From an uncultured Pseudomonadales bacterium (GTDB lineage: Bacteria; Patescibacteriota; Microgenomatia; UBA1400; PJMF01): a stretch of DNA of 64,000 nt. Position 1 is the first letter of the stretch; each line of letters starts with the position of its first letter. The stretch is taken from positions 6,064-70,063 of the forward strand of contig CAZYBC010000001.1 of NCBI GenBank assembly GCA_964645645.1, given 5' to 3'. The position numbers and the translations under genes are program-made. Below the pieces are notes generated by a model, which worked only from the letters and a program-made list of their open reading frames with translations, ran no database searches and was not told where the DNA came from. Shown here piece by piece: positions 1,908-61,924 of this stretch.

Positions 1908-2123
1908 ACATATTTTTCCCTATGGATTGCTTAGGATTTTGTAAGAACAATTATACCAGTGAACACTCGATTAGCGGAACGCAATGTGAAGAATAAAAAA
2001 GTTGATGACTAGCAGATTTAACCTTAAAACAGAGTGAGTATTGTGAGGGTCACCCAATTATAAATAGAAACCATTGAGCCAGTTTTAAGGTTAGTAGAAA
2101 GTTTCAGAGAGCATGAAAACCAG

Positions 2124-2984
2124 TTAATAGTGCTGGTATCCACCATCGTCCTCTTCCTCATCTGTAAGTCTGCCCGATAAGAAATCTGGCAACCATTTCT
2201 GCACTGTACCCATTGTCCAGAACTTCAACCACTCAAACTTCTTCTCGTCTTTGTTTTCCTCAATCCATTCCATGAAGTCTATAATCTGCTTTGGAGTACG
2301 CCCTGCCAAGAACATCGCCCTCGTATAGTTTAAAGCTGTTTTTAGCTCACTACCCCTACGATCCGTACCACTAATTCGTTTATAAGCCATCAATACTTGG
2401 TTGTACTGTATCCGTGGAAACCTTTTGATATTAGGGTTTTTCTTTTTAGGAATCTGCAAATGATTCCCTTTAGTATTAACACTATTATTATTTGTATTAC
2501 TTATATTAAGAGTATTAGTATATATATTATATGGAAGAGTTAGCGATTCTTGATCGGGGACTTTAGAGACTTTTACTAGATTTTTACCGAGTAAATCAAT
2601 GTTTTTTAAATCATCTTCATTGTGAAGATTTTTCTTCATTGTAAACAATTTTCTTACCTGTTCATCGGTGAGTAGCTTTGGGGGAACAGTTAGTTGAAGT
2701 GTAACTTCTCTGCCACTGTGCTTCTTTTTAACCAATCCCAAATCTTCCAGCTGTTTGATTATCTTTCCAAAGTGTTGCTTTGTGATACCAAGGTGGTGTG
2801 CCAATTTAGAACTTACAAGATTTTCTAAGCCAAAGGTGTAATCAAGGAGAATCAACCTTGTATAAGCCCTTAGAAGGGGTGCTTCATCTTGCAGGAGTAG
2901 TAGTATAGCAACAGGTAAACTTATATTCTCAATTGATACACCTTGAGTTGTGTCTGCATGTAGTAATTGTGATTGTTCGGTCAT
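2124..2984 (-). CDS. Winged-HTH DNA-binding protein. It may be a replication or regulatory protein of the integrated element.
   Basis: 286-aa ORF. The N-terminal segment LAHHLGITKQHFGKIIKQLEDLGLVKK resembles a MarR/wHTH fold. The C-terminal domain is unknown. The gene lies inside the G+C-richer segment and overlaps the next ORF (ATGA junction). Confidence 0.5.
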   Translation of the reverse strand: MTEQSQLLHADTTQGVSIENISLPVAILLLLQDEAPLLRAYTRLILLDYTFGLENLVSSKLAHHLGITKQHFGKIIKQLEDLGLVKKKHSGREVTLQLTVPPKLLTDEQVRKLFTMKKNLHNEDDLKNIDLLGKNLVKVSKVPDQESLTLPYNIYTNTLNISNTNNNSVNTKGNHLQIPKKKNPNIKRFPRIQYNQVLMAYKRISGTDRRGSELKTALNYTRAMFLAGRTPKQIIDFMEWIEENKDEKKFEWLKFWTMGTVQKWLPDFLSGRLTDEEEDDGGYQHY

Positions 2985-3436
2985 GAGGTTGCTCCTTCTG
3001 TGTTGGTATCTTGTGATAATTCACTAATTTCATTCTTAATTCTGTGAAGCTCCGCATCTACATCAAATGGTTTAACCCCTTGAATGTCGCGACCAAACTC
3101 TTCTTTACAGTGGATTGAATTAGTGGCTACCCACATTACAAATTGAAGATCTTTCCAGTCAATTTCAAAACCTGCTTGTTGGCGTGCATATATTCTGTAC
3201 AACTGCTTTGCGATCACGGTTGAAGTAATCAAAGAGATGTAAGTCTGAAATGCCCTTATTTGGTCTCTCAAATAGCGACTCTTTTTCATCATTCTGTATA
3301 GCGTTGCTCTTGAAACACCAGATTGCAAACAGGCAATTCTAATAGAAAGCCCCGACCTTAAATATGGCTCTAATTTTGAGACCATTAGGTCTGCTTGTTC
3401 TTTCGTAAATGGTTGATTTCCCTTTTTTCGGTTCAT
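2981..3436 (-). CDS. HTH-domain protein (resolvase/terminase-small-subunit-like HTH).
   Basis: 151-aa ORF. LSIRIACLQSGVSRATLYRMMKK is a classical helix-turn-helix. Confidence 0.5.
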   Translation of the reverse strand: MNRKKGNQPFTKEQADLMVSKLEPYLRSGLSIRIACLQSGVSRATLYRMMKKSRYLRDQIRAFQTYISLITSTVIAKQLYRIYARQQAGFEIDWKDLQFVMWVATNSIHCKEEFGRDIQGVKPFDVDAELHRIKNEISELSQDTNTEGATS

Positions 3437-3497
3437 GTCGATATACTAGCAATTGATGGCTATTGACAGTCTCTCAAATGAGTGTTAAATTGTCAAT

Positions 3498-3812
3498 ATG
3501 AACGAAAATGTAGAAGACAAAATCCGATCACTATCGCTTCCTCAGCTTGAGATCCTAATGGTCATGGCGAAATCAAATGAGCCAGTTTCTACCAGCAGAG
3601 AGATCATGCAGACCACAGGAACAAGCTCTTATACTTTTGGTGCAATCATCTCTCCACTCAGAAGACATAAAGTAGACGGTCAAAGCCTTATAGTCCAAGC
3701 TGGTAAAGATGGCGCAAATGGGGTCAGATGGCAAATAAATGAGAAGCTTGTAAGCAAGCAAGACTTACTAATTTTATTAAATAGCATGGGGGTGCAAATC
3801 GAAGAAAACTAA
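3498..3812 (+). CDS. Small hypothetical protein, possibly a winged HTH.
   Basis: 104-aa ORF transcribed divergently from the HTH gene. No recognisable catalytic motifs. Confidence 0.4.
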   Translation: MNENVEDKIRSLSLPQLEILMVMAKSNEPVSTSREIMQTTGTSSYTFGAIISPLRRHKVDGQSLIVQAGKDGANGVRWQINEKLVSKQDLLILLNSMGVQIEEN

Positions 3813-4078
3813 ACTCAACTCAACACAAGTAAACAAAATTAAGTAATGACGACTTTGCTCGGTCACAAGTAGACCCAGCTTTATATCAAGAAATGACAGT
3901 AGACGATTTAGGTATAAAGTTGGGTTTTTTTGATGCAAAAAAGACATGAGTAATAAAAAAGATAATAAAAAACTAGATGAGGGTCTGCACCAATGGTTCG
4001 AACTGGTATTGGCACACATCCAGCATAAACAAGTAGTACAAAACACAACAAAAAAAGTTGTAAGTGAAAGGAAAGAAT

Positions 4079-4261
4079 ATGCCAAAAGTGTTAATCAAAG
4101 AAATTAGAGGCTACATCGGAGCAAAAGAATACTTTTGCCCCAATTGTGGTGAAGAATTAGGATTGAACGCACACATTGACCATCTGTTAATGGACAGTGA
4201 CCTTGAAAAGATTCAGGCGTACTTTCTCTACTGCAATCGGTGCGGAGAAAAGATCGAGTGA
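4079..4261 (+). CDS. Small zinc-ribbon protein (two CxxC pairs).
   Basis: CPNCGEE...CNRCGEK. The ATG at 4079 is preceded by GAAAGGAAAG (Shine-Dalgarno). The ORF track starts earlier, at GTG 4064. Confidence 0.45.
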   Translation: MPKVLIKEIRGYIGAKEYFCPNCGEELGLNAHIDHLLMDSDLEKIQAYFLYCNRCGEKIE

Positions 4262-4422
4262 AACCTTTTGAAGTTGAGCCAAATCAAACCTGAAAATAAA
4301 ATATAGGTATATAAAAAAAGAGGCTGTGTCCGTCTAAAGAAACAACCTCTTTTACATTACAAACAGCGTTTCCGCCGTTAGTGAATATAATATCACACAC
4401 GACGGAGCCTAGAAAGGAAGCT

Positions 4423-4926
4423 ATGACAACGGGCTTTGTATCCGTCGGAAGACGCCATTTAGAAATTGACCCCACAGATGTGGCAGTTAGAGATTACTTC
4501 GGAGTATCCCAACTATTCCGCTACTCCCTCGCTTTTTCCGAAAAAGCATACGACCAAACATTGATACTTGTTCCAGGGCATGATTGGGTACTTCATCCAG
4601 ATATAGCGGTACCTGACGACTTGAACCCCAACCTTAGAGGACAAGACTTGAACCTACAAGATCAAACTCAGTGGTTTTCCAGCATTGCAGATCAGATTCG
4701 TGAGTATTGCCCTGCTGAATCTGAATTATTTTTCCATTCTGGGAAATGGTTTGACCAGCTATTCACCTATCTCAGTCAACCAGATCCGATTTCAGGAAGT
4801 CCAACCTGTTATACCTTCCACACGCCAATGCGAGATCAACATTTAAGAATAGGAAAACAGTTGGCGTTCTATAAGTCGATGGTCGGGCAATTACCCTCAG
4901 TAAAAAATGAAAGGAGGGCTAAATGA
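4423..4926 (+). CDS. Hypothetical protein translationally coupled to the serine recombinase. It could be an accessory or directionality factor.
   Basis: ATG at 4423 is preceded by GAAAGGAAG. Its stop overlaps the recombinase start (ATGA at 4923-4926). Confidence 0.5.
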   Translation: MTTGFVSVGRRHLEIDPTDVAVRDYFGVSQLFRYSLAFSEKAYDQTLILVPGHDWVLHPDIAVPDDLNPNLRGQDLNLQDQTQWFSSIADQIREYCPAESELFFHSGKWFDQLFTYLSQPDPISGSPTCYTFHTPMRDQHLRIGKQLAFYKSMVGQLPSVKNERRAK

Positions 4927-6491
4927 ACAACAACGGAGCTAATACCGCCTATGCATACTGTCGAGTAAGTACAGACCGCCAAGCCAAAGAAGGATTTTCA
5001 CTTGAACAACAAAAGAAGTCCTGTGAACAACTCGCCAAAAGTCATTCAATTAAAATACTCGATTTTTATATCGATCGAGGAGAAACCGCCACTGCCTCGA
5101 ACCGCAAACAGTTTATGCAGATGTTAGAAGACTGTGAGCGCAAAGAAGTGAAGTACATCTTGGTATATCATACCGACCGATTTGCAAGAAATAGCCTAGA
5201 CCACCTCGTAATTAAGGACAGGTTAGCAAAACTTAACATTGCACTTCTGTCAGTCACCCAACCAATGATTGACTCATCTCCAGAGGGTAAGTTGCTCGAC
5301 ACTATGATGGCTTCCATCAACCAATTTTACAGTGACGATCTATCTAGAAAAACAATGCGTGGCATGTATGGTCGCTGGGAAAAGGGCTGGTGGGTATCTG
5401 GTGCACCACACGGCTATATGAATATTAATAAAGAAAATAGAATCACTAAAACATCTTTTACAGTCGAGAAGCAAAAGTACCTAGACTCGCTAGGTCGACC
5501 AATTATGCCAATTGAACAAGACCCTTTCGTAGCACCTTACATCAAGCAAGCATTTGAATTGTACGCCACAAATAACTACTCATATTTTAATCTGGGTCAA
5601 TACTTATTTGAAAAAGGACTAAAGACAGCAAATGGTAAACCCTTAGCCCACAGCACCATTCACCAGATCATAACGAACAGTTTTTATTTTGGAAAAATGC
5701 GCTGGAACAATGAAGAGAGGATGGGAAAACATGAACCACTTATTGATGAGGCACTTTTCAAACACTGTCAATTGATCGCAGCTCAAAAAAGGCACTTCAT
5801 CATTCGTCAACGCAAACATGACTTCTTACTGCGTGGTGTAGTTTTCTGCAATAGGTGTGGTCTGCGGTATACGGCCGAGTGGCACAAAATAAACTCTACT
5901 AGCTCAGACAAAATAGCCTATTACCACTGTGCTAAACGCCAGCCATGTAAATCCCCTTATGTAGAGATGGAAGAACTTGAATCTCTAGTTGAGAAACAAC
6001 TGCGTAAAGTTAAGTTCACCGATGAGTTCATCCAATTACTCAGTGACAAGGTAAAAGAGTACTTAGAGAATCAAGGATCCCGTAATAGTGAGGTGGAACA
6101 AATTCTAGTTAAACGCCGAGCAGAACTCAAAAAACAGAAAAGTGAGTTACTGTCTTACTTGGTTAACAAAGTGATTGATAAGGATGACTTTGCCGAGAAA
6201 AAAGCCGAGATTGAGAATGAAATTGAAGGTATCAATGAAGAGGTTGGTAAGCTAGATCGAACCAGCAATTTCGATTTTGACCTACTAGAGGAGGTACTAA
6301 AGTTAACTATGGACATTCCAGCCACCTACAATGACGCACCTCCAGAGCTCAAGAGACAGTATTTGAAGTTCTTCTATAATAAGGTGAAAGTGGACAACAA
6401 AAAAATTATAGCAGTTGAATTTTCTGATTTATTACTTGAGCTAATTTCTTTTAAGCGTCTTATAATAATCAGTAGAAGGCTCCCCGGGTAG
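4923..6491 (+). CDS. Large serine recombinase (resolvase/invertase catalytic domain, recombinase domain and zinc ribbon).
   Basis: YAYCRVSTDRQ catalytic serine motif. Length 522 aa. A C-terminal Cys cluster (CNRCG...YHCAKRQPC) is present. A strong SD (AAAGGAGGG) precedes the start. The stop TAG at 6489-6491 lies inside the 3' end of tRNA-Asn. Confidence 0.85.
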   Translation: MNNNGANTAYAYCRVSTDRQAKEGFSLEQQKKSCEQLAKSHSIKILDFYIDRGETATASNRKQFMQMLEDCERKEVKYILVYHTDRFARNSLDHLVIKDRLAKLNIALLSVTQPMIDSSPEGKLLDTMMASINQFYSDDLSRKTMRGMYGRWEKGWWVSGAPHGYMNINKENRITKTSFTVEKQKYLDSLGRPIMPIEQDPFVAPYIKQAFELYATNNYSYFNLGQYLFEKGLKTANGKPLAHSTIHQIITNSFYFGKMRWNNEERMGKHEPLIDEALFKHCQLIAAQKRHFIIRQRKHDFLLRGVVFCNRCGLRYTAEWHKINSTSSDKIAYYHCAKRQPCKSPYVEMEELESLVEKQLRKVKFTDEFIQLLSDKVKEYLENQGSRNSEVEQILVKRRAELKKQKSELLSYLVNKVIDKDDFAEKKAEIENEIEGINEEVGKLDRTSNFDFDLLEEVLKLTMDIPATYNDAPPELKRQYLKFFYNKVKVDNKKIIAVEFSDLLLELISFKRLIIISRRLPG

Positions 6492-6551
6492 GACTCGAAC
6501 CTACAACCTTGAAGTTAACAGCTTCCTGCTCTGCCATTGAGCTACCGAGGA
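6480..6551 (-). tRNA. tRNA-Asn (anticodon GTT).
   Basis: Hand-folded cloverleaf. Acceptor TCCTCGG/CCGGGGA, D-arm GCTC-AATGGCA-GAGC, anticodon loop CTGTTAA (U33, GUU, A37), T-arm GTAGG-TTCGAGT-CCTAC, discriminator G. The acceptor and anticodon loop match the E. coli tRNA-Asn pattern. Confidence 0.85.
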
Positions 6552-10697: not shown

Positions 10698-11306
10698 ATG
10701 CAAGAACCAATTATTTATCAGCCTACCTCAGAATTACAACTTAGCCAACATATTTTTCGCACTCCCATTGACGGGCTTTATTATATAACGATTGACAAAA
10801 AAAATGACGAACGGGGTTTTTTTAGCCAAATTATTGAATTACAAGAATTAGAAGCAATTATTGGTCAACCTTTTACAGTAAAACAATTTAACTATTCTAA
10901 AAGCCAAACTAATGTGGTGCGTGGTTTGCACGCTGAAGGTTGGAATAAATTAGTGACAGTCACTCACGGAACCGCTTTTAGCGCTTTGGCTGATATTAGA
11001 CCTCAGTCTGCTACTTTTAAACAAGTTGTTTATTTTAAATTAGGTTTTGACCTTAATCCTGATCTTGGCTTTGCTCTTTATATTAGCCAAGGCATCGCCA
11101 ATTCAATTTGTGCCTTAGAAGGGCCTGTAGAATATCTTTATTTAGTGGATAAACTGTATAGCGAACGCAGCCAAAAAGATAATGCGGCCCTATCAATTTT
11201 TGATCCAGAATTAAATATTCAATGGCCCATTGCCAAAGAACAAATGATCATCTCACAACGAGATACTCAACCTAAAAAATTAAGCGAAATGTTAGCGGAA
11301 AAATAA
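10698..11306 (+). CDS. dTDP-4-dehydrorhamnose 3,5-epimerase-like cupin (RmlC family).
   Basis: DERGFF...VRGLHAEGW...KLV.VTHG...DIRP.S.TF are RmlC signature segments. The second catalytic His region is diverged (ANSICALEG). Confidence 0.6.
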   Translation: MQEPIIYQPTSELQLSQHIFRTPIDGLYYITIDKKNDERGFFSQIIELQELEAIIGQPFTVKQFNYSKSQTNVVRGLHAEGWNKLVTVTHGTAFSALADIRPQSATFKQVVYFKLGFDLNPDLGFALYISQGIANSICALEGPVEYLYLVDKLYSERSQKDNAALSIFDPELNIQWPIAKEQMIISQRDTQPKKLSEMLAEK

Positions 11307-11318
11307 CTTGATTGTTTT

Positions 11319-11885
11319 TTAGCTAAATTCTTCGTTGCTCTCCATGTCTTTTTCAATCAAATCTCTAAGATAAACAGAGCGAGGAATTTTTTTATTTTTA
11401 GCAATCCAATCTAAATAGTTTTGATGTCTAGGTGAAATGAAAAAGTTAAAACGAGTATCTTGTTGTTCAGCGGCATAATCAATAGCAGTGGAAAGCACTT
11501 CAATTAAATTAGCTTCTGAATATTCAATCAACTGTAATTTATCATTGACGATACCTTCTACAAAACTAGGACGAAAATCTTTTAAATAAAGAGCAATGAC
11601 TGGTTTATTAAGCTGTAAAGATCTTTCCATGATATAACCCATAGATAAACTATTCATGGAAACTTCAAGAACAATTAAATCAGCTTTTTTAATATATTCG
11701 ATAGTTTTTTTATAATGATCAACTCGACTTTCATGAGAACCATTATAAAACTTTTCTCGGTATTCAAGACTAGTTATTCCTCTTAAATGACTATGACCTA
11801 GTCTTTCAATCTCTTTATAAATGGCGTCGTAATATTTACCGAACTCTTTAATGCCTCGTCCGGATTGATCAAAATAAATTTTCAT
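11319..11885 (-). CDS. Nucleoside 2-deoxyribosyltransferase-like domain fused to a C-terminal ribbon-helix-helix (RHH) DNA-binding domain.
   Basis: ADLIVLEVS...GYIMERSLQLNKPVIAL matches the NDT/Rcl-like fold, with a Glu in the GY.ME motif. The C-terminal RFNFFISPRHQNYLDWIAKNKKIPRSVYLRDLIEKDM has a beta-alpha-alpha RHH pattern. The start was chosen at MKIYF (ATG 11885). The ORF track extends to 11918. Confidence 0.5.
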   Translation of the reverse strand: MKIYFDQSGRGIKEFGKYYDAIYKEIERLGHSHLRGITSLEYREKFYNGSHESRVDHYKKTIEYIKKADLIVLEVSMNSLSMGYIMERSLQLNKPVIALYLKDFRPSFVEGIVNDKLQLIEYSEANLIEVLSTAIDYAAEQQDTRFNFFISPRHQNYLDWIAKNKKIPRSVYLRDLIEKDMESNEEFS

Positions 11886-11939
11886 AATTAAAATTATATT
11901 ATATACCAACCGAGGCAAAGACTAAACCTTAAATTTATC

Positions 11940-11960
11940 AATTCTACAATTTGTAGAATT
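11940..11960. promoter_or_regulatory. Perfect 21-bp palindrome (candidate operator) in a divergent promoter region.
   Basis: AATTCTACAA-T-TTGTAGAATT. Located between the NDT-RHH fusion gene (minus strand) and the ribA-like gene (plus strand). Confidence 0.5.
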
Positions 11961-12046
11961 AATAATAATTTATTACTTTTGAAGCCTAGACTAAAAAATG
12001 TTATAATTTTTTACGAAAAAAATAACATTATTAAGATTATTTTATT

Positions 12047-12676
12047 ATGCGTACTAATTTTAAAAAAACCACTACTATCAATTTGGACACTCCTCATGGC
12101 AGATTTTTAGTTCATTTATATGAAGATCCTAGCTCTAAAGATAAAGATGATCCTTTTATTGTTAAACATCATCTAGCTTTAACTATGGGGGAAGTCAACA
12201 ATAAAGCAAATGTTTTAGTAAGAGTTCAATCTAAATGTTTATTAAATGAAACTTTTGGTGACTTAGAATGCGATTGTGGTCAACAATTGCATCATGCCAT
12301 GGAATTAATCGCTCAAAAAGGTGAAGGCATCATCGTCTACTTAATGCAGGATGGCAAAGGCATCGGCTTGGCTAATAAAATTAAAGCCATTAAAGTTTGT
12401 CAAGAAAAAGGGATGGATATGTATGATGCTTTTATTGATCTTGGCTTTAAACCTGATGAAAGAAGTTACGATGTCGTGGCTGATATTTTGGAAGACTTAG
12501 GGGTGCAATCTCCTATTCAATTAATGACCAATAGCCCAGATAAAATTCAACAATTAGCAGAATGTGGTATTCAAGCCAATCGCGTGGCTATTGAAATGCC
12601 AGTTACTGACTATAATCGTAAATCATTGACTTACAAAAAAAATAAAATGGGGCATTTACTCCACGAAATTATTTAG
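12047..12676 (+). CDS. ribA: GTP cyclohydrolase II (RibA) homolog, standalone.
   Basis: RVQSKCLLNETFGDLECDCGQQL (zinc-binding C..C.C) and LMQDGKGIGLANKIKA...LMTNSP are clearly alignable to RibA. The Arg of the conserved EGRNIGL motif is replaced by Lys. Confidence 0.7.
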   Translation: MRTNFKKTTTINLDTPHGRFLVHLYEDPSSKDKDDPFIVKHHLALTMGEVNNKANVLVRVQSKCLLNETFGDLECDCGQQLHHAMELIAQKGEGIIVYLMQDGKGIGLANKIKAIKVCQEKGMDMYDAFIDLGFKPDERSYDVVADILEDLGVQSPIQLMTNSPDKIQQLAECGIQANRVAIEMPVTDYNRKSLTYKKNKMGHLLHEII

Positions 12677-15600
12677 TTGACTGGTTTAAAAACTCCAAAT
12701 TTCTAATTTCTGTCATAACTTGAATAATCAGCTCTTTTAATAAAGAGACATCTTCATCTTTTAATTCAAATTGAGCTTGCTTAATTTTATCAGTCTCTTT
12801 TTTAGCTTCCACAAATTCAAAAACTCCATATTTTACTGTCGGCAAAAATGATTTATCTAAATCAGCTAATAATTTATAAAACAATAGCTGGCGCTTATAC
12901 TGCCCTCTAATTTCTTCGGGTAAAGCTAATTCTCTGGCACTGTATTGATCAATGCCTACTTTGCCATCAATCTGATTAGCGGATTTTGCTGACCCAGTTT
13001 TATAATCAATAACTTTAACAATTTTTTTCTCTTCATCCACCCAATCAATTCTATCAATTCGGCCATTTAAACGAATATCGTTTAGCATCACGTTATGACC
13101 GCTTTTTCCAAAAGCACGTTCAATGAACATGGGCTGAGCAATGGGCTGAATTTGTTCGGTAAAATATTGATAATATTTATTTAACATCACTTGTCCATGT
13201 TTTAATCTTTTTTCTAATTCACTAGGGCTAAGAATTTCTTTTTTTAAAGCTTGTTCAAAATTAGCCAAAAAAGTTTCTACACTAATCGGTAATTCTTGAT
13301 TTAATAAAGGTCGATATAAACTTTCTAAAGCAGCATGGACCGCTGTCCCAAAAGCCATTACGGCTGGTTTAGATTTAGGAACTCGTAATAAAAAATTTTC
13401 TGTAAATTCTTGCGGATCACGTAAATAAGAATTTAAAGCTGTCACTGATAAAGAAAAATTTTTGACTAAATGGCTAAAAAAAGCTTGCTGATCTGCTTGA
13501 ACTGTCTCTGCCAAAACTTGCGAACTAACTGGTTGTAATAAAACTGGCAAAAATGATTCTGCTTGTTGTTCTATGGTTGGATTTTTTAATTCCTCAAAAT
13601 TAGTCAGTTCATGTAAAAACAAACTACTAATTTTGGCCTTACTCTGATTATTGCCCACTTCAATCAAACTTTTAGGATAGCTAATCATTAATTGTTTTTT
13701 GGCCCTAGTTAAAGCCACATAAAATAACCGTCGCTCATCATCATTTTTTTCTTTTAAATCGCCACTCGTAAAACTTAAAATTTTATCAGGCAAAGGAATA
13801 ATTTCTTTATTACTCTTATTACCCCATTTTTTATCCATCACTTGATATAAGAAAACATAATCCCATTCTCTACCTTTTGCTTTATGAACCGTGGCTAAAG
13901 TAACTCGATTATCAATAACATTAAAATCTTCGGCCTGAATAATCATTCCGTGTTCCTGCATCGTATCAATTGCTTGAATAAAATCAGCTAATTTAAAAGC
14001 CTGATTTTGATAAACTAAATTCTTAATCTGACTATAAAGTGCATTTAAAGACAACAATAAAAGAGTTTTTTGTTGATGCTGCAAAACCCAATCTAAATAG
14101 CCAGAATCTTTTAAAACTTGTTCAAACCATTGCGTAAAAGGTACTTGAAAATCAAGCTGACTCCATTGAGTTAATTTTTGCAAAACCTCAGCAACACTTT
14201 GCCATTCTGCCTTAGTGATTTGCAACTCTAGCTTTTTTTCTTCAATATTTAGCAAAGCTTGATCATAACCAGCTTCAATCAAATCATAAATACTGACATC
14301 TAACTTGCCAGCTAAACGACCTAACTTCATAATTAATAAACTATCTAAATGCAACCATTGATATTGTAAAAGTTGATAAAACAAGCCTTTTTCTTCAACA
14401 TTGCGAATAGCTAAAATAGTTTTAAATAAATGTAAAAGCTGGATTATTTCTTCATTAGTTAAAACATTATTGCCCCCATTCACTTCAAAAGGAATTTGCC
14501 ATTTGGCTAAAATATTAGCTAAATCAACCATATCCGCATTATCACGATAAAGGATAGCCACTTTATCAGCCTTTACGCCTTTAGCTAATAAAGTCTTAAC
14601 TTGATCAGCGACAAATAAAGCCTCTACCATTTGCGAAGGAGCGGCATAAAGTTGTACTTGCGTCTTAACTAAACTAACACTTTGCAAAGGTTCTTGAGAT
14701 TGCACTAAATCACTAATTTGTTTTTTAGCTTGAGAATCAATTTTATCTAAATTGACTAAATTATGGCTAATAAGTTGATGAGCTTGATTATAAATTTCTT
14801 GCGGACAACGATAACCTGTTTCTAAATAAACATGTTTAGCTTGAGGATAAAGATCAAAAAAACCCAACATATTTTCCACTGAAGCACCTTGAAACCGATA
14901 AATAGCTTGATGTGGATCACCCACTACACAAACATTAGCCTGATCCTGCCAATAATTAGCTAATAATTGCAAAATTTTATTTTGCGCATTATTAGTATCT
15001 TGATATTCATCTACCAAAAAATAATGAATGTTTTCTTGATAATCTCTTAATAAAATTTCATGTTGCTCAAAAGCTGATACCACAAAATTAATCATGTCAT
15101 CAAAATCAAATCTGTTTAATCGCTGCAAGTTTTGTTGATAAGAAGCATAAATTTGATAAAGCTCTTGGTTTTTAATTACCTTCTGGGTTTGTTTAGTAAT
15201 TTTAACTTTTTTACCTTTTGGATTAGCTTGTAATTCAGCCAAATAAGCTGATTCATCTTTGATTAATTGTTCATAAACTGCCAAACTAATTCCTTCTCGT
15301 TTTAAATCTGAAACCGCAGTAATAATCTTTTTTAAGAACATGTAAGGATCATTTAAGGGGCGTAATTTCAGTAAATCTAATTTATCAATAATTGTTCGAA
15401 ATAATTCATAGCGCTCTAAATCCGTAATTGCCTGACTATCATGAGCCAAAGAAAAATATTCTGGATTATCTTGAATAACTTCTTGAGCAAAACCATGAAA
15501 AGTGCTAATCCTAACGTAATAGGCAGCTTGACCAATCAGCTTAATCAAACGCTCCCGCATATTTTGAGCAGCGGATTGAGTAAAAGTTAAAGCCAAAATA

Positions 15601-22824: not shown

Positions 22825-23475
22825 TTAATTTAAGCTCTGTAATTTTTGAAAAGCTGTATATAATTCTTTTTTTACCACAGATGTATTTATCTCTAAAGAA
22901 TGTTTTTCAAATAATTGCTGTAACTGATGATGTTGCTGAGAATGATTTTGCCAATAGCTAGGACTAATTTGCAGTACTTTTAATAATAAATCTCCAGGGT
23001 ATAAGTCACCTTCAACCAAAATATTTTTGTCTAAAATTTCCAAAGCAATCGGTATAATAATGTCTAAAGCCAAACTTTGGCCAATTAATAAACGTAATTG
23101 TTCGATACTTAAATTTCTCAATGGAATTTTGCCACAAGCTTTAATTTTATTAATTAATTCTGATTCAAAATCAAATTTTTCCCAATCCGATCCCAATAAT
23201 TGTTCTAAAGTTTTAAAACGCTCATCATTGGGAGGATTCTTAACATTTATGAATCTAGATTCTAACGTTCCCAATGAATGAGGAGCCAATAAATTTTTTA
23301 GCTCTTGCTCATCAATGATTTTTTGTTCATCCTGACCGGTTTGATAATTTCTTAGCCAATACTGATATTGGCCATTACCTAAATAACGTAAACCCCACTC
23401 ATCTTCTTGATGACGAGTATAAAACTCTACACCTGGCTGTTGCAGACGATTTAAAAAGGAGTTAAGGGTTAACAT
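22825..23475 (-). CDS. Hypothetical protein.
   Basis: 216-aa ORF with no recognisable motif. Confidence 0.45.
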   Translation of the reverse strand: MLTLNSFLNRLQQPGVEFYTRHQEDEWGLRYLGNGQYQYWLRNYQTGQDEQKIIDEQELKNLLAPHSLGTLESRFINVKNPPNDERFKTLEQLLGSDWEKFDFESELINKIKACGKIPLRNLSIEQLRLLIGQSLALDIIIPIALEILDKNILVEGDLYPGDLLLKVLQISPSYWQNHSQQHHQLQQLFEKHSLEINTSVVKKELYTAFQKLQSLN

Positions 23476-23478
23476 ACC

Positions 23479-24009
23479 TTATTTATACAACACTTTTGCC
23501 AATTCTGTTTGCAGAAATTCTGTACTCTTGCCCCATTTTAAGTATTGAGTTAAATCTTTTAAATCAACAAATAATTGATGTTTAACATCGCCATAATCAG
23601 GATCTACAATAAATTTATCTTGCTTAGCAATTTTAGTTAAAAACCTCACTTGCGTTTCACGATATTGCCAACCTTGTTGATAATGATAAACTTCCTGAAA
23701 AAAGAATGGTTCAATAAAATTCTCATCTACAACAATAGCCGACTCTTCGTAAACTTCACGTTTTAATGTATCAATGAAATTTTCACCTTCTTCCATACCT
23801 CCACCAGGCAACATCCATTCTTGATCAGCCTTAGCCACAAGTAAAAGTTGATTTTGAGAGTTAAGCACTAACCCAGAAACTTGTTTAATATGATGGTTAT
23901 TAAGTTCAGTAAAAGAAGAAGTTAAATAAAGGTCAAAACGGTATAAGTCATTATTAACTTGAACTTCTTGTTGAAGGGAAGGTAGGTGGTTAAATGGTAT
24001 GTTTTTCAC
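23479..24009 (-). CDS. NUDIX hydrolase.
   Basis: Nudix box: LPGGGMEEGENFIDTLKREVYEESAIVV. Confidence 0.8.
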   Translation of the reverse strand: MKNIPFNHLPSLQQEVQVNNDLYRFDLYLTSSFTELNNHHIKQVSGLVLNSQNQLLLVAKADQEWMLPGGGMEEGENFIDTLKREVYEESAIVVDENFIEPFFFQEVYHYQQGWQYRETQVRFLTKIAKQDKFIVDPDYGDVKHQLFVDLKDLTQYLKWGKSTEFLQTELAKVLYK

Positions 24010-40454: not shown

Positions 40455-40757
40455 ATGACTCAAAAACCACAATATTTAGATCAAGCCTTTAAAGAAGAAC
40501 TAGATAAAATGCTAGTTACTTTTATTCAAAAACATAAAGATTATGGTAAAGGTAACATTTTAGATACTGGCGAACTAGGGATTATTTTTCGCGTTAATGA
40601 TAAAGTTAACCGACTAAAAAACTTATTAAGTAAAGACCAAGATCCCGCCAATGAATCAATTAATGATACCTGGATGGATATTGCTGTTTATGGCATCATT
40701 GCCTTATTACTGCGCAATGGTAAATTTGATAAATTAAATTTAGACCCTAAAAAATAA
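40455..40757 (+). CDS. Small hypothetical protein, possibly MazG-like all-alpha NTP pyrophosphohydrolase.
   Basis: 100-aa ORF. KHKDYGKGNI...RVNDKVNRLKNLL loosely resembles the MazG-like fold. Confidence 0.4.
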   Translation: MTQKPQYLDQAFKEELDKMLVTFIQKHKDYGKGNILDTGELGIIFRVNDKVNRLKNLLSKDQDPANESINDTWMDIAVYGIIALLLRNGKFDKLNLDPKK

Positions 40758-44261: not shown

Positions 44262-45329
44262 ATGACCAGAACTTTTAGTATCATTATTATTTTTCATAAT
44301 GAACAAGCTGGCTTAAAAAATTGCCTCCTATCTGTTTTAAAACAAAATTACCCTCAAAATAAATATCAAATAATTTTAGTAAATGATTCTTCTAAAGATA
44401 ATTCTGTTAAAACTATTCAAACTCTGCTTCAAGAACCAAATATTTCATTAATTAACTCCGATAAACCTTTAGGTATTTCTACTGCTAGAAATCTTGCTAT
44501 TAAAAAGGCCAAAGGAGAAATTTTATTTTTTATAGATGCTCATATCTATTTACAAAGAAATACTCTTTCAATAATTAATCAAAAATTAAATCAATATCCT
44601 CAAATTTCTGGAGTCTGTGGACAATATTCTGCTAAAGAAAAAAATGACTATAATGTTATTAGAGATTTACGAAGAATAATCAATTTTAAAAAAGCCGAGC
44701 AAGATTTTATTATTGATTTAGAAAATTTTACTACTTTTTCTATAGCCGTAGGCGCATATAAAAAAGAAGTTTTTAAAAATAATTTTTTCCCAGATCATTT
44801 TGAAAATAGTGCTGGAGAAGATGTTTATGTGCAATTAAAAGCTCATCATAATGGACACAAATTTCTTTATACCTCAGATATATCTGCATATCATGACGCA
44901 AAATTAAGTTTAAAAAAATTATTGACTAAATTAACTCAAGAGATAAAAGGCACTATTAATATAATTATTCATTCTATTGAAAATAATGATCACTTTAACT
45001 TACCTTTCTTGGAACATTTTTTAGATTATCCAATTTTAATTTATGTATTTTTAATTTCCTTTTTATTAACTAAAAATATTTATTTAGGAATAATTTTTTT
45101 ATTAGCCTTTATCATTAGATACAGTAAAACTGTACAAGCAATAAAAATTAAACCACAGTTTTTTATTCAATATTTAATTTTTTTAATTATTAAAGATTTT
45201 TTACAATTTATTGCTTTAACAACTCTATTATTCAATAAAAATGCAAAAATCTTTAACTATCTAATTACTATTAAAAAAAATCAATTAAAAAATTATTTTA
45301 AAATCTTACCATGTGTAAGTAGAAGATAA
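44262..45329 (+). CDS. Glycosyltransferase family 2 with a C-terminal membrane domain.
   Basis: FSIIIIFHNEQAGL...IILVNDSSKDNS...FIDAH. Confidence 0.75.
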   Translation: MTRTFSIIIIFHNEQAGLKNCLLSVLKQNYPQNKYQIILVNDSSKDNSVKTIQTLLQEPNISLINSDKPLGISTARNLAIKKAKGEILFFIDAHIYLQRNTLSIINQKLNQYPQISGVCGQYSAKEKNDYNVIRDLRRIINFKKAEQDFIIDLENFTTFSIAVGAYKKEVFKNNFFPDHFENSAGEDVYVQLKAHHNGHKFLYTSDISAYHDAKLSLKKLLTKLTQEIKGTINIIIHSIENNDHFNLPFLEHFLDYPILIYVFLISFLLTKNIYLGIIFLLAFIIRYSKTVQAIKIKPQFFIQYLIFLIIKDFLQFIALTTLLFNKNAKIFNYLITIKKNQLKNYFKILPCVSRR

Positions 45330-45339
45330 ATAAAAAAAT

Positions 45340-46506
45340 ATGTTAAAGAAAAAAATAGACTATACTAATCCTGGACATCTTAAACTTTGTATTCTTTCAG
45401 AAGGAATTAATGTCCAAGCAATTAAAACTTACCAAAAAATTCAATTTGCAGAAAATACTTATCAGTATGGCAATGGTAATAAATTAGATGAAATTAAATC
45501 AAAATATCCGGCCTATCTAATTTTAGCTGATGAAACTAATGTTGGGCTTAATTATAATAAAACTTCTCCTTGGTCATTAACTTATCAAGATAAAACTAAA
45601 AAATTATTATTAACTTATCAAGATAAAATTATTACAGAAGCTTGGCTTTCTCCACAACCTAATTTTTATTGTAAAAAATTAAGTAATGGTCAAGATATTA
45701 CCAGTGTTTTAGGCCTTTATGGTCTCCATTGCTTAACCTTTTTTGTCAGAGGTTGGTGTATGTTTATTAATAAAAATCAAGCCTGCCAATTTTGTTCTTT
45801 AGGTTTAGCCAGAAAAGAAGTTGGTAAAAAGAATGTTTTAACAACCACCCCACAATTAGCTAAAGAAGCATTAAAGATTGCTTTAGCTAGTGATAAAAAC
45901 ATTGTTGAATATATCAACTATAGTTCTGGTACTTATCCAGATTTTGATAAAGGTATAGAAGACCAATATTTAATCTTAAAAGAAATTAAAGATATTCTAC
46001 CTAAAGATAAATATATTAAACAACACATGTTAACTTTCCCTCCAGCTAATAAAAAATGGATTGAAAAATTATTCGAAGCTGGTTTAGGAAGCTTAAATTA
46101 TTCACTAGAAATCTTTGACCGTGATTTGTTTGCTAAAATTTGTCCAGGAAAAAATAATTTTTTTGGTTATGATCGTTTTATTCAATCATTTAAAGAAGCT
46201 GTTGAGATTTTTGGCAAAGGAAAAATGTATGTTAATTTTGTTGGAGGACTAGAACCTTTAGAATCTTTATTAACTGGCATTAATTATTTTGCTGACTTGG
46301 GTATCGCGTCTTCAATTAATGTCTTTCATCCAGATAAAGGCACTCCATTAGAAAATCATCCTAAACCTTCAATTGAATATTTATTTGCCATGGTAGAAGA
46401 AATGCATCGTATTTATAAAAAGCATCATTTCACTTGTATTTATCCAAAAGGAGGAACTAGAAATTCTTTAGATACTGAGGTTTGGAAAGGATATTTTGCT
46501 AACTAA
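45340..46506 (+). CDS. Hypothetical protein with a Cys cluster (Cx8Cx8Cx2C), possibly radical-SAM-like.
   Basis: CLTFFVRGWCMFINKNQACQFC, and a later VGGLEPL that resembles a GGEP motif. The spacing is non-canonical. Confidence 0.45.
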   Translation: MLKKKIDYTNPGHLKLCILSEGINVQAIKTYQKIQFAENTYQYGNGNKLDEIKSKYPAYLILADETNVGLNYNKTSPWSLTYQDKTKKLLLTYQDKIITEAWLSPQPNFYCKKLSNGQDITSVLGLYGLHCLTFFVRGWCMFINKNQACQFCSLGLARKEVGKKNVLTTTPQLAKEALKIALASDKNIVEYINYSSGTYPDFDKGIEDQYLILKEIKDILPKDKYIKQHMLTFPPANKKWIEKLFEAGLGSLNYSLEIFDRDLFAKICPGKNNFFGYDRFIQSFKEAVEIFGKGKMYVNFVGGLEPLESLLTGINYFADLGIASSINVFHPDKGTPLENHPKPSIEYLFAMVEEMHRIYKKHHFTCIYPKGGTRNSLDTEVWKGYFAN

Positions 46507-47497
46507 TCAACAAATTATTAACCAGCTAAAGAATAGAATAAACTCTTTAAAAAAAATTCAATTAAATGATTATTATGATCAATTACAAAAAAAAATTCCT
46601 TTAGAAGAATTAATTTTTAAAATTATTACTTCTTCCAAATTTAGAAAATGGGCAATTAATCAAGAAGTTAAAGATAAAATAAAAGAAGCAATTAAATTAA
46701 ATATAGAAAAAAATGAACCGATAAAAATTTCCTTTACTTTTGGTGGTTATAAGTTATGGAGAATTCCTTCTTATCCATTGGCAGATTGGGCAGAATTTTT
46801 TGCCTTACTTTTTTATTATGATTGGTTAAAATTAATCACCATTTTTTATAAACCAGGTATAATTTTTAATTTTTATTCTGATGATGTAATTGTTAACCAA
46901 ATAAACAATGTTCCAAATTCAGACATCAAAAAATATATTAGTTCTTTTGAAGAATTACTTGATTTCATTAACTCAAAAATAATGAGAAACTTTAAATTTA
47001 AACTTATCAGAATTAAAAATATTTACTCATCGTTAGAATTCAATCAAGAGTTATTAAAAAATCTAAATCAAATCAAAGAATTAAAACTTCAACCTACAAA
47101 TAATGAACTAAAAGCTACTCAATTAAATTATAAATTTAATAATCAAAATCTTGTTGATCAAAAAAAACGATTTTTATTATTACAATCATTTGAACTGCAT
47201 GCAGCTTATAGAAATTTAAGTAAAAGAAAACAGATCTGTAAAACCACTGATCAAATTATTGTTTATGCTGATCATTTTCCTACGGCAATTGGATTAGGGA
47301 CTACTAAGGATTCTATTACTAAATTTTGGATTGGCACTGGTATAATTCAAGCTAATCAAAAAAATATTCAATATACAATTTATTCACCAGTAACTTATAA
47401 AGAAAAAGTTAATTTTATAACTGAAATCAAAACAAATTTAATTAATTTAAAAAATCCAAATTTTTCTAAATTATTAATTTTAAGAAAGGAAAAATAA
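46496..47497 (+). CDS. Hypothetical protein.
   Basis: 333-aa ORF overlapping the upstream gene, extremely AT-rich. Confidence 0.45.
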   Translation: MLTNQQIINQLKNRINSLKKIQLNDYYDQLQKKIPLEELIFKIITSSKFRKWAINQEVKDKIKEAIKLNIEKNEPIKISFTFGGYKLWRIPSYPLADWAEFFALLFYYDWLKLITIFYKPGIIFNFYSDDVIVNQINNVPNSDIKKYISSFEELLDFINSKIMRNFKFKLIRIKNIYSSLEFNQELLKNLNQIKELKLQPTNNELKATQLNYKFNNQNLVDQKKRFLLLQSFELHAAYRNLSKRKQICKTTDQIIVYADHFPTAIGLGTTKDSITKFWIGTGIIQANQKNIQYTIYSPVTYKEKVNFITEIKTNLINLKNPNFSKLLILRKEK

Positions 47498-47499
47498 AT

Positions 47500-47685
47500 A
47501 TGAAAACTATAGAAGATGGCAAAAATGCTTATATTCATCAATCTGATGGATTACTAGAATGGGTTAAACAACAAGCTAAACAAAGAAGGCAAGCTAGACA
47601 AGAACGAAAAAAAAGACAAGCCGAAAGAGATGAAGCGAACCAAACTAAAGAAAGAGCAAAAGCTCAACATCATAAAATAGATTAA
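47500..47685 (+). CDS. Small highly basic protein.
   Basis: 61 aa with a KRQ-rich C-terminus, followed by a terminator. Confidence 0.4.
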   Translation: MKTIEDGKNAYIHQSDGLLEWVKQQAKQRRQARQERKKRQAERDEANQTKERAKAQHHKID

Positions 47686-47732
47686 GAATTTTTCAAAGTA
47701 TCTATACTTAGATGCTGATCTCTCTAGCTATC

Positions 47733-47762
47733 AAAAGCGCCAATACATTTGGCGCTTTTTTG
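47733..47762 (+). terminator. Intrinsic terminator.
   Basis: AGCGCC-AATACATTT-GGCGCT followed by T6. Confidence 0.7.
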
Positions 47763-47900
47763 TGCTATAATATTTAGTCTCGGCCACATTCCACGTATTG
47801 AGAGAAAAGGTATCAAATTTCAAGTTTCCTCTTAATCTTATTTATCAAAGCTTTGCTTTGAAATTATTGTTATTGGTTAACCCCAAACAAGGAGGTCAAA

Positions 47901-49187
47901 ATGCTATTTAATCTAAGCACAACCTACCGGTCTAAGAGTAACTTTTATGAACACAATCTAAAATATATTAAGTGGTTGGAGTTAGCTGGTTCATTGATGT
48001 TTTTAATCCCAGTTTGGGTAAATTTTGAATTGCGTTATCTCAATTTAGCTCAATTAGCTATCATTGAAGCGGCAATTTCATTTACTCAATTAATTTTAGA
48101 ATTACCTACTGGCGCTTTAGCGGATTTATTAGGTAGAAAAAAAACTATTACTTTTGGCTATTTATTGCATGCCACTGGTTTTTTATTTTTCTGGTCTGCC
48201 AAAACTTTTAATGGTTTTTTATTTAGTTCACTGTTTTTTGGCTTTGGTGAAGCATTAATTAGTGGCGCTAAAGAAGCTTTAGTATTTGATACATTAAAAC
48301 AAGCTCATCAAGAAAAAACTTTTACCAAATTAATGAACTTTTTACAAAAGCGGTTTTATTGGGGAATGGCAATTGCTACTTTAATTGGTGGATTAACTTA
48401 TCAAATTAATATTCATTTGCCACTTTTCTTAAATATTTTAGCAATTTTAACTTGCGCCTATTTTGCTTCTCAATTACGTGAACCAATTTTGGATAGTGAA
48501 AAATTTACTTTAGCTATTTATCTTAAACAAACTAAGCAAGGTTTTAGTGAATTATTTAAAACACCTAAATCTCGTCGCATTTCTTTTTACTACATTTTAT
48601 TAGCCGCAGTGAGTTGGCCAATGGTAATTAGTTTAAAAAATATTGCCATGAGTAAAGTGGGTTTAACGGAATTACAAATTGGTTTAATTTTACCAGTGAT
48701 GAATTTATTAAATGTTTACTTTTTTCATTTTATGTTAAAAAAGCAAGCCTTTAAAAATTTGCCTGCAACTTTTATTGCTTTAGCTTTGGTAGCTGGTCTA
48801 AGTTGGTTGGGGTTAGCAGCTAACTTTTCTATTTTCATGGTTTTAATCGTAGCCTTTACCTTGTCATTTATTTCTAGTTGCCGCTGGAATGTTATTGGGG
48901 AATTAACTAATAGTTGTTATTCTAGTAAAAATCGAGCCACTGCTATTTCTACTTTAAGCATGATTATTGGCTTAAGTTATGGCAGCGTGATGATTTTATT
49001 TAGTATTTTCAGTAATTCAACAATTAATCCTGTGATTTTAATTGCTTTATTTATGGCCGGTTTAGCTGGCATAGTTTTACTACCTTTAGCAATTAATTTA
49101 AGCAATAACTTAGCTAACAAAAAAATCAATTTTGAACCTCAAATAGAAAATCCTTTAGAAAAAAGTATTAGCCTTACTGCAAAATAA
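47901..49187 (+). CDS. MFS transporter.
   Basis: TGALADLLGRKKTI (MFS motif A), 12 predicted TM segments, and a strong SD (AAGGAGG) upstream. Confidence 0.75.
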   Translation: MLFNLSTTYRSKSNFYEHNLKYIKWLELAGSLMFLIPVWVNFELRYLNLAQLAIIEAAISFTQLILELPTGALADLLGRKKTITFGYLLHATGFLFFWSAKTFNGFLFSSLFFGFGEALISGAKEALVFDTLKQAHQEKTFTKLMNFLQKRFYWGMAIATLIGGLTYQINIHLPLFLNILAILTCAYFASQLREPILDSEKFTLAIYLKQTKQGFSELFKTPKSRRISFYYILLAAVSWPMVISLKNIAMSKVGLTELQIGLILPVMNLLNVYFFHFMLKKQAFKNLPATFIALALVAGLSWLGLAANFSIFMVLIVAFTLSFISSCRWNVIGELTNSCYSSKNRATAISTLSMIIGLSYGSVMILFSIFSNSTINPVILIALFMAGLAGIVLLPLAINLSNNLANKKINFEPQIENPLEKSISLTAK

Positions 49188-59630: not shown

Positions 59631-59635
59631 AAACT

Positions 59636-61921: not shown

Positions 61922-61924
61922 ACT

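Follow-up and report, generated by a model that had tools for sequence, protein, structure and literature searches.

A GTP cyclohydrolase II homologue with two replaced active-site residues, encoded beside a DNPH1-like/putative ribbon-helix-helix protein in a Microgenomates-type genome

Within a 64-kb stretch of contig CAZYBC010000001.1 (hereafter the window), a low-GC (~33%) chromosome segment of Patescibacteria/Microgenomates type, we analyzed two genes that are transcribed divergently from a 161-bp AT-rich spacer. One, open reading frame (ORF) B, encodes a stand-alone homologue of GTP cyclohydrolase II (RibA) in which two otherwise invariant active-site residues are replaced. The other, ORF A, encodes a protein that joins a nucleotide-binding domain of the nucleoside 2-deoxyribosyltransferase (NDT) superfamily, most similar to DNPH1/Rcl, to a probable C-terminal ribbon-helix-helix (RHH), an architecture that we call NDT-RHH. 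Both are genuine ORFs, and the existence of the two genes and their homologies were confirmed. Genes of these two kinds are replaced together, as a cassette, at a conserved chromosomal position in related genomes. The locus is probably a nucleotide-modifying module and not part of routine vitamin B2 synthesis. We tentatively favor the explanation that the locus pairs a GTP cyclohydrolase producing a ring-opened, formylated nucleotide with a nucleotide-binding RHH protein as its probable regulator.

A cyclohydrolase II homologue with a changed active site

ORF B has the same fold and belongs to the same family as E. coli RibA (PDB 2bz0/2bz1; PF00925). It scored above the cut-offs of PF00925 (GTP_cyclohydro2; 171.4 bits against 23.3) and of the NCBIfam RibA subfamily model NF001591 (179.5 against 148), fell under that of the equivalog_domain model TIGR00505 (177.8 against 205.85), and aligned to E. 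coli RibA (2bz0) with an E-value of 1.7e-34. The residues of the zinc and pyrophosphate sites are conserved: in E. coli numbering, ORF B retains Arg49, the zinc ligands Cys54, Cys65 and Cys67 within the motif CX2GX7CXC, Gln70, Asp126 and Arg128, as well as the C-terminal KMGHLL motif. In RibA, ring opening takes place at the zinc site, and Arg128 has a role in releasing pyrophosphate (PMC10366380).

ORF B differs from E. coli RibA in the replacement of Arg94 by Lys, Tyr105 by Ile, His51 by Gln and Glu53 by Lys. The first of these changes had been noticed in an earlier reading of this DNA from its letters alone (hereafter the original prediction), which pointed out that the conserved EGRNIGL motif reads DGKGIGL and took this as a hint of altered chemistry; our alignment to 2bz0 indeed places Lys104 of ORF B at the Arg94 position. 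The replacement of Tyr105 by Ile115, which that reading did not mention, is the more telling one. Arg94 and Tyr105 were each kept in 113/113 non-clade homologues among the sequences returned by a large homologue search, and were replaced by Lys and Ile, respectively, in all six members of a clade consisting of ORF B and five close relatives (52–83% identity). In a neighbor-joining tree, the six sequences formed a monophyletic group with ordinary root-to-tip distances. Comparison with the 83%-identical relative (locus L006) revealed purifying selection on both genes of the pair, with ratios of nonsynonymous to synonymous substitution (dN/dS) of 0.05 in ORF A and 0.09 in ORF B; the neighboring RmlC gene gave 0.20. 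The clade-wide replacement of two invariant residues, combined with ordinary branch lengths and the low dN/dS of ORF B, argues for a specific, maintained functional change and not for decay. Judging from these residues, the chemistry of ORF B is probably altered, with the change of Tyr105 to Ile the stronger signal, together with that of Arg94 to Lys. A metagenome scan for further clade members returned, among the matches listed, only canonical RibA at up to 49% identity, and a search of 2.9 million viral contigs found no relatives of ORF A or ORF B.

Formate release reportedly depends on Tyr105, known as the 'switch' residue of deformylation, and SCO6655, a natural Tyr-to-Met homologue from Streptomyces coelicolor, is said to stop at the formylated product 2-amino-5-formylamino-6-ribosylamino-4(3H)-pyrimidinone 5'-phosphate (FAPy, or AFRPP). 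ORF B resembles SCO6655, as reported for that enzyme, in that the switch Tyr is replaced while the zinc site and Arg128 are intact, which predicts a formylated product. It differs in having Ile rather than Met at the switch position and in the additional change of Arg94 to Lys. A figure legend of one preprint terms the switch residues 'catalytic tyrosines in RibA'. FAPy is the product of archaeal GTP cyclohydrolase III (PMC9478397, PMC7288161), whose fold is unrelated to that of ORF B although the predicted product is the same, and its entry into riboflavin synthesis requires a separate formamidase (PMC9478397). Our literature searches returned nothing directly relevant on RibA in Patescibacteria or on SCO6655.

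The original prediction considered a stand-alone RibA-like enzyme unexpected here, given that no other riboflavin-pathway genes lie nearby. This absence extends across all 64 kb: Pfam scans of the ~58 ORFs (E ≤ 1e-5) found no member of the RibB, RibD, RibH, RibE or RibF families, and Rfam found no flavin mononucleotide (FMN) riboswitch. Elsewhere, gene-call Pfam tables (ORF lists for locus L012, described below), which are not targeted rib searches, showed no rib genes in four contexts of the Arg94Lys/Tyr105Ile clade and L012, and gene-call Pfam tables of the same untargeted kind listed none in three contexts of the L012 enzyme's Met/Leu-class relatives.

A DNPH1-like domain joined to a probable ribbon-helix-helix

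ORF A had originally been described as a 199-aa protein, starting at TTG 11918. More than 500 relatives all start with MK[IV][YF]F, and the family alignment begins at MKIYF of ORF A, so we assign the start to ATG 11885 and reject the longer version as an over-extension; the protein has 188 aa. Its NDT-like similarity is weak in Pfam and solid against DNPH1/Rcl, the 2'-deoxynucleoside 5'-phosphate N-hydrolase of the NDT superfamily (PF05014). Against PF05014 itself, ORF A scored below the cut-off (E = 0.012); the same model matched 25/31 relatives, at best with E = 9e-8. Residues 4–128 matched solved DNPH1/Rcl chains in a phmmer search of the PDB with a residue-level alignment (E = 3e-7), and an AlphaFold (AF2) model computed from 31 relatives (predicted local distance difference test score, pLDDT, 88.7) matched DNPH1/Rcl structures in Foldseek with E = 6.6e-8, a probability of 1.00 and TM-scores of up to 0.85.

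Like DNPH1/Rcl, ORF A keeps the phosphate loop (Ser8-x-Arg10-Gly11, corresponding to G-S-I-R-G), and it also retains Tyr19, Glu74 and Ser79, the equivalents of Tyr24, Glu93 and Ser98. Unlike DNPH1/Rcl, it has lost two catalytic positions: in human DNPH1 numbering, the nucleophile Glu104 is Ile85 and Asp80 is Thr61. Of 120 close relatives, 111 have Leu, Val or Ile in place of the nucleophile. With the catalytic Glu and the Asp both lost, the domain is likelier to be a pseudoenzyme that binds a ligand than an N-glycosidase, and we read ORF A, from its residues, as a putative nucleoside-5'-monophosphate-binding pseudoenzyme joined to a DNA-binding domain. The NDT/Rcl-like fold named in the original prediction holds, and its fusion to an RHH is probable; an N-glycosidase role is not supported.

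The C-terminal segment carries an invariant strand, R-F-N-F-F, followed by a conserved helical motif (see Table 1). Pfam PF12651 (RHH_3) matched 5/31 relatives (best E = 0.0012), and a C-terminal profile searched against the PDB gave RHH proteins for all of its top four matches (CopG-family proteins, CopG and YiiF, with two CopG chains), in register with the strand-helix-helix and with weak E-values of 0.03–0.76. Helices are predicted at residues 152–164 and 169–183 after an extended segment; the monomer model shows no strand there (pLDDT 64). Among ligand-responsive RHH regulators (CopG, Arc/Mnt, MetJ and NikR), it is CopG with which the C-terminus of ORF A aligns, weakly. In NikR, MetJ and PutA, a small-molecule-binding domain (or an enzyme) is joined to an RHH, the same logic as in ORF A. 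Unlike known RHH regulators, ORF A has its RHH at the C-terminus and a DNPH1-type sensor, and its R-F-N-F-F recognition strand is invariant across paralogues. Unlike DNPH1/Rcl, the RHH-bearing family is bacterial and restricted to Microgenomates. No database annotates the architecture, and no description of a DNPH1-type fold joined to an RHH was found in the literature searched, which yielded only unrelated papers on phages and viruses.

Joint replacement of cassettes at the UvrD–RmlC slot

The pair lies within a block conserved in 14 loci, which runs M24 peptidase, M29 peptidase, RmlC-like, NDT-RHH, slot, UvrD/AddA and Dus. The slot holds a cyclohydrolase in the window, L003, L006 and L012, a PfkB kinase and viperin in seven loci, an HD protein and a methyltransferase in two loci, and other genes elsewhere; in the window, the 3' end of ORF B overlaps that of the convergent UvrD/AddA gene by 8 nt. 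The proteins flanking the slot are 46–65% identical to those of the window in every genome compared, irrespective of slot content. The identity of the NDT-RHH protein to ORF A, by contrast, tracks slot content: 58–68% in the cyclohydrolase group, L013 and L014, and 42–50% in the viperin and methyltransferase groups. Because the flanks are equally similar throughout while NDT-RHH identity follows the content of the slot, partner and NDT-RHH gene have been replaced together. This joint replacement is the best evidence here for a functional tie between ORF A and ORF B. A version in which NDT-RHH stays fixed at the slot while its partners are swapped was revised on the same identities, which show replacement of the whole cassette.

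A second cyclohydrolase occupies the same slot. The L012 enzyme has Met at the Tyr105 position and keeps Arg94, and adjoins the same NDT-RHH subtype as in the window. It belongs to a distinct lineage, equidistant in a neighbor-joining tree from canonical RibAs and from the window clade, and to a widespread class of stand-alone, ~195-aa enzymes whose switch position is Met, Leu or Val, which comprises 36 of 120 hits (the L012 enzyme and 35 others). The window clade falls outside this class as a separate monophyletic group. Since two independent Tyr-less cyclohydrolases adjoin the same NDT-RHH subtype, we argue that FAPy-type chemistry has been under selection. The L012 cyclohydrolase gene is co-directional with its NDT-RHH gene, which it precedes by 8 nt, so the divergent arrangement that the original prediction took as a feature of the pair is not conserved.

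The surroundings of Tyr-less cyclohydrolases vary. In the window, L006 and L003, genes of the Arg94Lys/Tyr105Ile clade have NDT-RHH on one side and the UvrD/AddA helicase-nuclease on the other. In L172/L173, a P-loop NTPase gene overlaps the downstream end of the clade cyclohydrolase, to which it is translationally coupled, and divergent Nudix and GIY-YIG genes lie alongside; in L007, an ApbA-type reductase gene lies upstream. Among the Met/Leu/Val enzymes, a cyclohydrolase with Tyr105 changed to Met lies in a defense-island-like region (L176, 1508–12582) with NurA, a DUF87/HerA-like ATPase, Fic, RelA_SpoT, an SMC-like ATPase and a STAND NTPase. A conserved cluster of serine hydroxymethyltransferase, a class I/II aminotransferase and a Tyr-less (Met/Leu) stand-alone GTP cyclohydrolase II is found in a Patescibacteria genome (L174, 984–8845; GCA_028865035.1) and in Paenibacillus (L175, 1692–6588), with an HAD phosphatase nearby in both. 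A thiamine pyrophosphate-dependent enzyme follows the cyclohydrolase in L174, and the Paenibacillus contig ends at the cyclohydrolase. This cluster looks like a non-riboflavin pathway that uses a FAPy-type enzyme.

NDT-RHH proteins form a large Microgenomates family with partner-specific subtypes

The original prediction regarded the fusion as a non-standard architecture. While it is indeed absent from database annotation, it is not rare: it defines a large, multi-copy Microgenomates family, most members of which have no link to GTP cyclohydrolase. At 90% identity, the family falls into more than 525 clusters of ~190-aa proteins, every one annotated as 'hypothetical', which come from Woese-, Pace-, Beckwith-, Collier- and Roizmanbacteria. 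Searching 1.84 billion representatives with a profile yielded 1,896 matches (50%-identity clusters) at E ≤ 1e-3 and 198 at E ≤ 1e-30. A genome may carry up to five copies within 8 kb; a family hidden Markov model (HMM) scan of the window found one, ORF A.

We surveyed the neighborhoods of 134 family genes in 84 loci. Directly upstream, genes for class I S-adenosylmethionine (SAM) methyltransferases are the most frequent (36 cases), ahead of further family members (30) and radical SAM enzymes (11); among the remaining partners are PfkB kinases, P-loop kinases, a cytidine-deaminase-type enzyme, and Nudix and HD proteins. In a rough neighbor-joining tree, NDT-RHH copies group by the type of their partner enzyme. 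The nucleotide-centered module suggested in the original prediction is consistent with this tracking of partners and with the exchange of whole cassettes at the slot. Given the MetK, methyltransferase and radical SAM partners, it is possible that some family members sense SAM-related nucleosides; a MetK (S-adenosylmethionine synthetase) gene lies divergently beside a RibA-type NDT-RHH gene in L014 (2214–3365). The window also contains a class I methyltransferase gene overlapping a Nudix gene (55062–56266), enzyme types that partner NDT-RHH elsewhere and that stand here without it.

The radical SAM partner is prokaryotic viperin (pVip): it matched the full PADLOC model of pVip 'associated with kinases' with E = 4.8e-53, and its best PDB match was viperin 5vsl (E = 8e-23). 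A PfkB kinase (or Nudix) gene, viperin and an NDT-RHH gene that retains the catalytic Glu form a three-gene unit at two chromosomal positions in Microgenomates, one on the UvrD/RmlC side (L034, L041, L044, L051, L058, L063 and L067) and one on the RecR side (L053, L055, L064 and L076), at ~2000–4600 in each locus. The NDT-RHH sequences of PfkB + viperin units cluster together in the neighbor-joining tree despite these different positions. No description of an NDT-RHH partner of viperin was found in the literature searched. The window locus resembles such pVip and kinase systems in that these occupy the identical slot in sister genomes and likewise have an NTP-modifying enzyme followed by an NDT-RHH gene. 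It differs from them in that the window has no viperin homologue, the cyclohydrolase is neither a radical SAM enzyme nor annotated for defense, and ORF A lacks the catalytic Glu that the viperin-associated subtype keeps.

An initial view that the whole family has lost the catalytic Glu was dropped, as this is true only of the subtype nearest the window. At the positions equivalent to residues 85 and 10 of ORF A, 140 representatives (P0241–P0390) had the Glu only in 51 cases, the phosphate-loop Arg only in 64 (the window type), neither in 22 and both in 3; DNPH1 itself has both. The Glu is thus kept in 54/140 (~39%) of these wider representatives, all of subtypes other than that of the window, and the motif G-[YHQ]-E is kept in viperin-, deaminase- and PfkB-associated subtypes and in one methyltransferase-associated subtype. 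Glu and phosphate-loop Arg are thus almost mutually exclusive, which suggests that proteins of this one architecture fall into two functional classes. Some family members may accordingly be active glycosidase-regulators and others pure sensors; ORF A would be of the sensor kind.

The shared intergenic region

The coordinates of both genes and of candidate control elements between them are given in Table 1. Within the window, two perfect palindromes have arms of at least 10 bp, against 0.75 expected per window in first-order Markov simulations. The promoter-like site ahead of ORF B, of which TGTTATAAT is conserved in L006, is a consensus match only: nine such sites occur in 11200–12800, against 8.9 expected from shuffles.

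Table 1. Coordinates of the ORF A/ORF B locus in the window
Feature	Position	Strand	Basis
ORF A, 188-aa NDT-RHH protein	11319..11885	-	start ATG 11885; family HMM E 6e-78
C-terminal RHH (~aa 143-185)	11331..11459	-	invariant strand R-F-N-F-F and motif P-R-S-V-Y-L-R-x-L-I-E
DNPH1/Rcl-like nucleotide-binding domain (~aa 1-140)	11466..11885	-	phmmer vs PDB, Foldseek, AF2 model
Divergent AT-rich intergenic region common to ORF A and ORF B	11886..12046	.	sequence; alignment to L006 and L003
Perfect 21-bp palindrome AATTCTACAA-T-TTGTAGAATT, candidate operator only	11940..11960	.	palindrome scan
Promoter-like TTGAAG, 17 nt, TGtTATAAT (extended -10), ahead of ORF B	11979..12007	+	consensus scan, 10/12 matches plus TG
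ORF B, 209-aa stand-alone GTP cyclohydrolase II homologue, Arg94Lys/Tyr105Ile clade	12047..12676	+	PF00925 E 1.6e-50
Lys104 codon AAA at E. coli Arg94 position (EGRxIGL motif)	12356..12358	+	alignment to 2bz0
Ile115 codon ATT at E. coli Tyr105 position (deformylation 'switch' residue)	12389..12391	+	alignment to 2bz0

Proposed mechanism and alternatives

In the mechanism that we tentatively favor, ORF B would be a neofunctionalized GTP cyclohydrolase II that binds GTP, releases pyrophosphate and opens the imidazole ring. Because the Tyr for deformylation is lost, it would halt at FAPy, a chemistry like that of GTP cyclohydrolase III. ORF A would act as a homodimeric DNA-binding protein that binds, without cleaving, a ligand resembling a nucleoside 5'-monophosphate, since the 5'-phosphate clamp and the Glu that binds the 3'-OH are retained and the nucleophile is gone. 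Candidate ligands are GMP and the predicted product of ORF B, itself an N-ribosyl 5'-phosphate. Through its CopG/Arc-type RHH, ORF A would then regulate transcription from the intergenic region between the two genes.

Several observations weigh against this explanation. The RHH similarity is weak match by match (best E-values of 0.0012 to 0.03), the neighbor-joining trees are rough, and the product predicted for ORF B depends on the reported Tyr-switch rule. The RibA-type NDT-RHH genes of L013, L014 and L008 have no cyclohydrolase neighbor, and the clade cyclohydrolases of L007 and L172 have no NDT-RHH gene within their short contigs. Tight spacing was discarded as evidence of coupling, as the median co-directional gap is 17 nt in the background and 15 nt for NDT-RHH genes. 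The intergenic palindrome is not conserved: the 83% relative (L006) has a degenerate version of it, and a 62% relative (L003) lacks it. Finally, no family-wide operator motif was found among palindromes upstream of 114 family genes, k-mers or half-site pairs; this search compared k-mer enrichment upstream of family genes and operon heads with background and covered inverted and direct half-site pairs at all spacings, and nothing survived multiple testing, with only 'TAGA'-type words marginally enriched.

An alternative is that the two genes are coincidental neighbors: ORF B would be the unlinked, horizontally acquired enzyme that begins the synthesis of riboflavin (or of another pterin or flavin), with an ArfB/BrbF-type formamidase elsewhere finishing the step if FAPy is made, and ORF A a generic local regulator. 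Some bacteria of the candidate phyla radiation (CPR) carry and exchange riboflavin genes (PMC11188291, PMC12455944), and a FAPy formamidase route to riboflavin exists in bacteria (PMC9478397). The genome has a demand for flavin, with the FMN enzyme Dus encoded two genes away; NDT-RHH genes are multi-copy and mostly stand beside other genes, and three of the RibA type lack a cyclohydrolase neighbor, as noted above. We nevertheless consider coincidence unlikely. Against it stand the clade-wide replacement of two invariant catalytic-site residues, the presence of two unrelated Tyr-less cyclohydrolases in one slot, each beside an NDT-RHH gene of the same subtype, and the cassette-wise exchange at that slot; furthermore, seven contexts contained no rib gene in their Pfam or ORF lists (not targeted rib searches), and the window has no FMN riboswitch. 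The pair could instead be an antiviral or conflict cassette like the viperin cassettes of the slot, in which ORF B would deplete GTP or make a ring-opened antimetabolite and ORF A would sense a nucleotide cue, either its partner's product or a phage-type modified nucleotide such as 5-hydroxymethyl-dUMP (5hmdUMP), a substrate of DNPH1, and gate expression. PfkB kinase, viperin and NDT-RHH occupy exactly this slot in sister genomes, and the content of the slot is hypervariable even though the flanks are equally similar from genome to genome. The L172/L173 cyclohydrolase, coupled to a P-loop NTPase and facing a Nudix gene, echoes the pairing of viperin with a kinase; the Met-class enzyme of L176 sits among NurA, HerA-like, Fic, RelA/SpoT and STAND genes; and NDT-like effectors act in retron defense (PMC13276650). 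On the other hand, neither ORF A nor ORF B matched a credible PADLOC model, the partners of NDT-RHH are mostly ordinary class I methyltransferases and housekeeping-type enzymes in conserved housekeeping synteny, and neither the PADLOC models nor the literature searched offered an experimental precedent for a cyclohydrolase effector; the absence of family members from viral contigs is neutral on defense either way. On balance, we regard an antiviral role as quite unlikely.

If ORF A instead used a non-canonical catalytic residue, it might be an N-glycosidase that cleaves or recycles the reactive product of ORF B, its RHH making it an enzyme-regulator like PutA. The family is not uniformly dead, given the ~39% of representatives with G-[YHQ]-E, including the viperin-, deaminase- and PfkB-associated subtypes, and the predicted product of ORF B belongs to the substrate class of DNPH1. 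N-glycosidases that act on riboflavin intermediates are known, as cited in PMC11188291; the citation there to COG3236 (DUF1768/YbiA) provides a precedent for a dedicated enzyme of N-glycosidic bonds that handles the RibA product. ORF A, however, is unrelated to COG3236 in fold, has no such Pfam match and lacks the nucleophile. Ile, Leu or Val at that position in nearly all of its close relatives, the loss of the Asp80 equivalent and the near-exclusivity of Glu and Arg (51 against 64, with both in 3), which suggests two modes rather than one common mechanism, make a catalytic ORF A improbable. A toxin-antitoxin-like addiction module, with ORF B as a nucleotide-destroying toxin and ORF A as a neutralizing, autoregulating RHH antitoxin, is more improbable still. 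In its favor, type II antitoxins typically carry RHH domains, NDT-RHH genes are multi-copy with cassettes exchanged between genomes, and one partner type has a weak Zeta_toxin match. However, the RHH of ORF A follows a folded domain of 140 aa, unlike in RHH antitoxins, the partners are mostly methyltransferases and kinases and not known toxins, and the window pair is divergent and forms no operon; no toxin family, toxin-antitoxin or PADLOC model matched, and the loci lie in stable housekeeping synteny.

Apart from these alternatives, a broader conjecture can be framed, which as a whole we hold to be distinctly unlikely. Tyr-less GTP cyclohydrolases II would constitute a hitherto unrecognized class of nucleotide-based conflict effectors, interchangeable with viperin at a Patescibacteria hot spot, that convert GTP into a ring-opened formamidopyrimidine nucleotide, acting by GTP depletion or as a source of an antimetabolite. 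Each would have a dedicated DNPH1-like/RHH nucleotide sensor gating the system, and the NDT-RHH family would be a CPR-specific adaptor coupling nucleotide- and SAM-using enzymes to nucleotide sensing.

Each of the domains described here was known separately. New here are the Arg94Lys/Tyr105Ile clade, the finding that the DNPH1-like/RHH architecture defines a large CPR family whose subtypes are partner-specific, and the link of this family to viperin. The clade, maintained by purifying selection, together with a second, convergent Tyr-less lineage at the same locus, amounts to a natural experiment on the active site of GTP cyclohydrolase II, one that would extend the 'switch residue' idea and point to a use of FAPy nucleotides outside riboflavin synthesis. 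If NDT-RHH proteins are nucleotide-sensing regulators or adaptors, they would give a handle on how nucleotide pools are monitored and manipulated in organisms unable to make nucleotides, and they may show how viperin expression is controlled in CPR bacteria. The UvrD–RmlC slot offers a tractable hot spot for comparing exchanged cassettes.

Other features of the window

Several further regions of the window stand out. At 4381–6551, genes for a DUF6884 protein and for a large serine recombinase with Resolvase, Recombinase and Zn ribbon domains adjoin a tRNA-Asn gene (6478–6551), probably marking the edge of an integrated element; GC content is 0.41–0.42 at 1–2000 and 4001–6000, 0.38 at 2001–4000 and ~0.32 elsewhere. 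At 22825–24009, a homologue of the contact-dependent-inhibition immunity protein CdiI_3 (E = 5.5e-23) lies beside a Nudix gene, with no CdiA toxin seen in the window. A low-GC island at 44262–49187 (25–27% over 44–48 kb) encodes a GT2 glycosyltransferase, a 388-aa radical SAM protein, a DIT1/PvcA-like protein and a major facilitator superfamily transporter, and may be a small-molecule cluster of isonitrile or dityrosine type. Rfam called a 103-nt tRNA at 57867–57969 (44.7 bits) that is absent from the ARAGORN calls and may be intron-containing or otherwise atypical. At 58038–63953, the hsdM and hsdS genes of a type I restriction-modification system are split by a gene for a 761-aa AAA_13 ATPase (GC 23%) and followed by a KilA-N gene, within which lies a perfect 26-bp palindrome, TAAACCCCTCGAATTCGAGGGGTTTA, at 63335–63360. 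A protein with DUF1599, the 'nucleotide modification associated domain 1', is encoded at 40455–40757.

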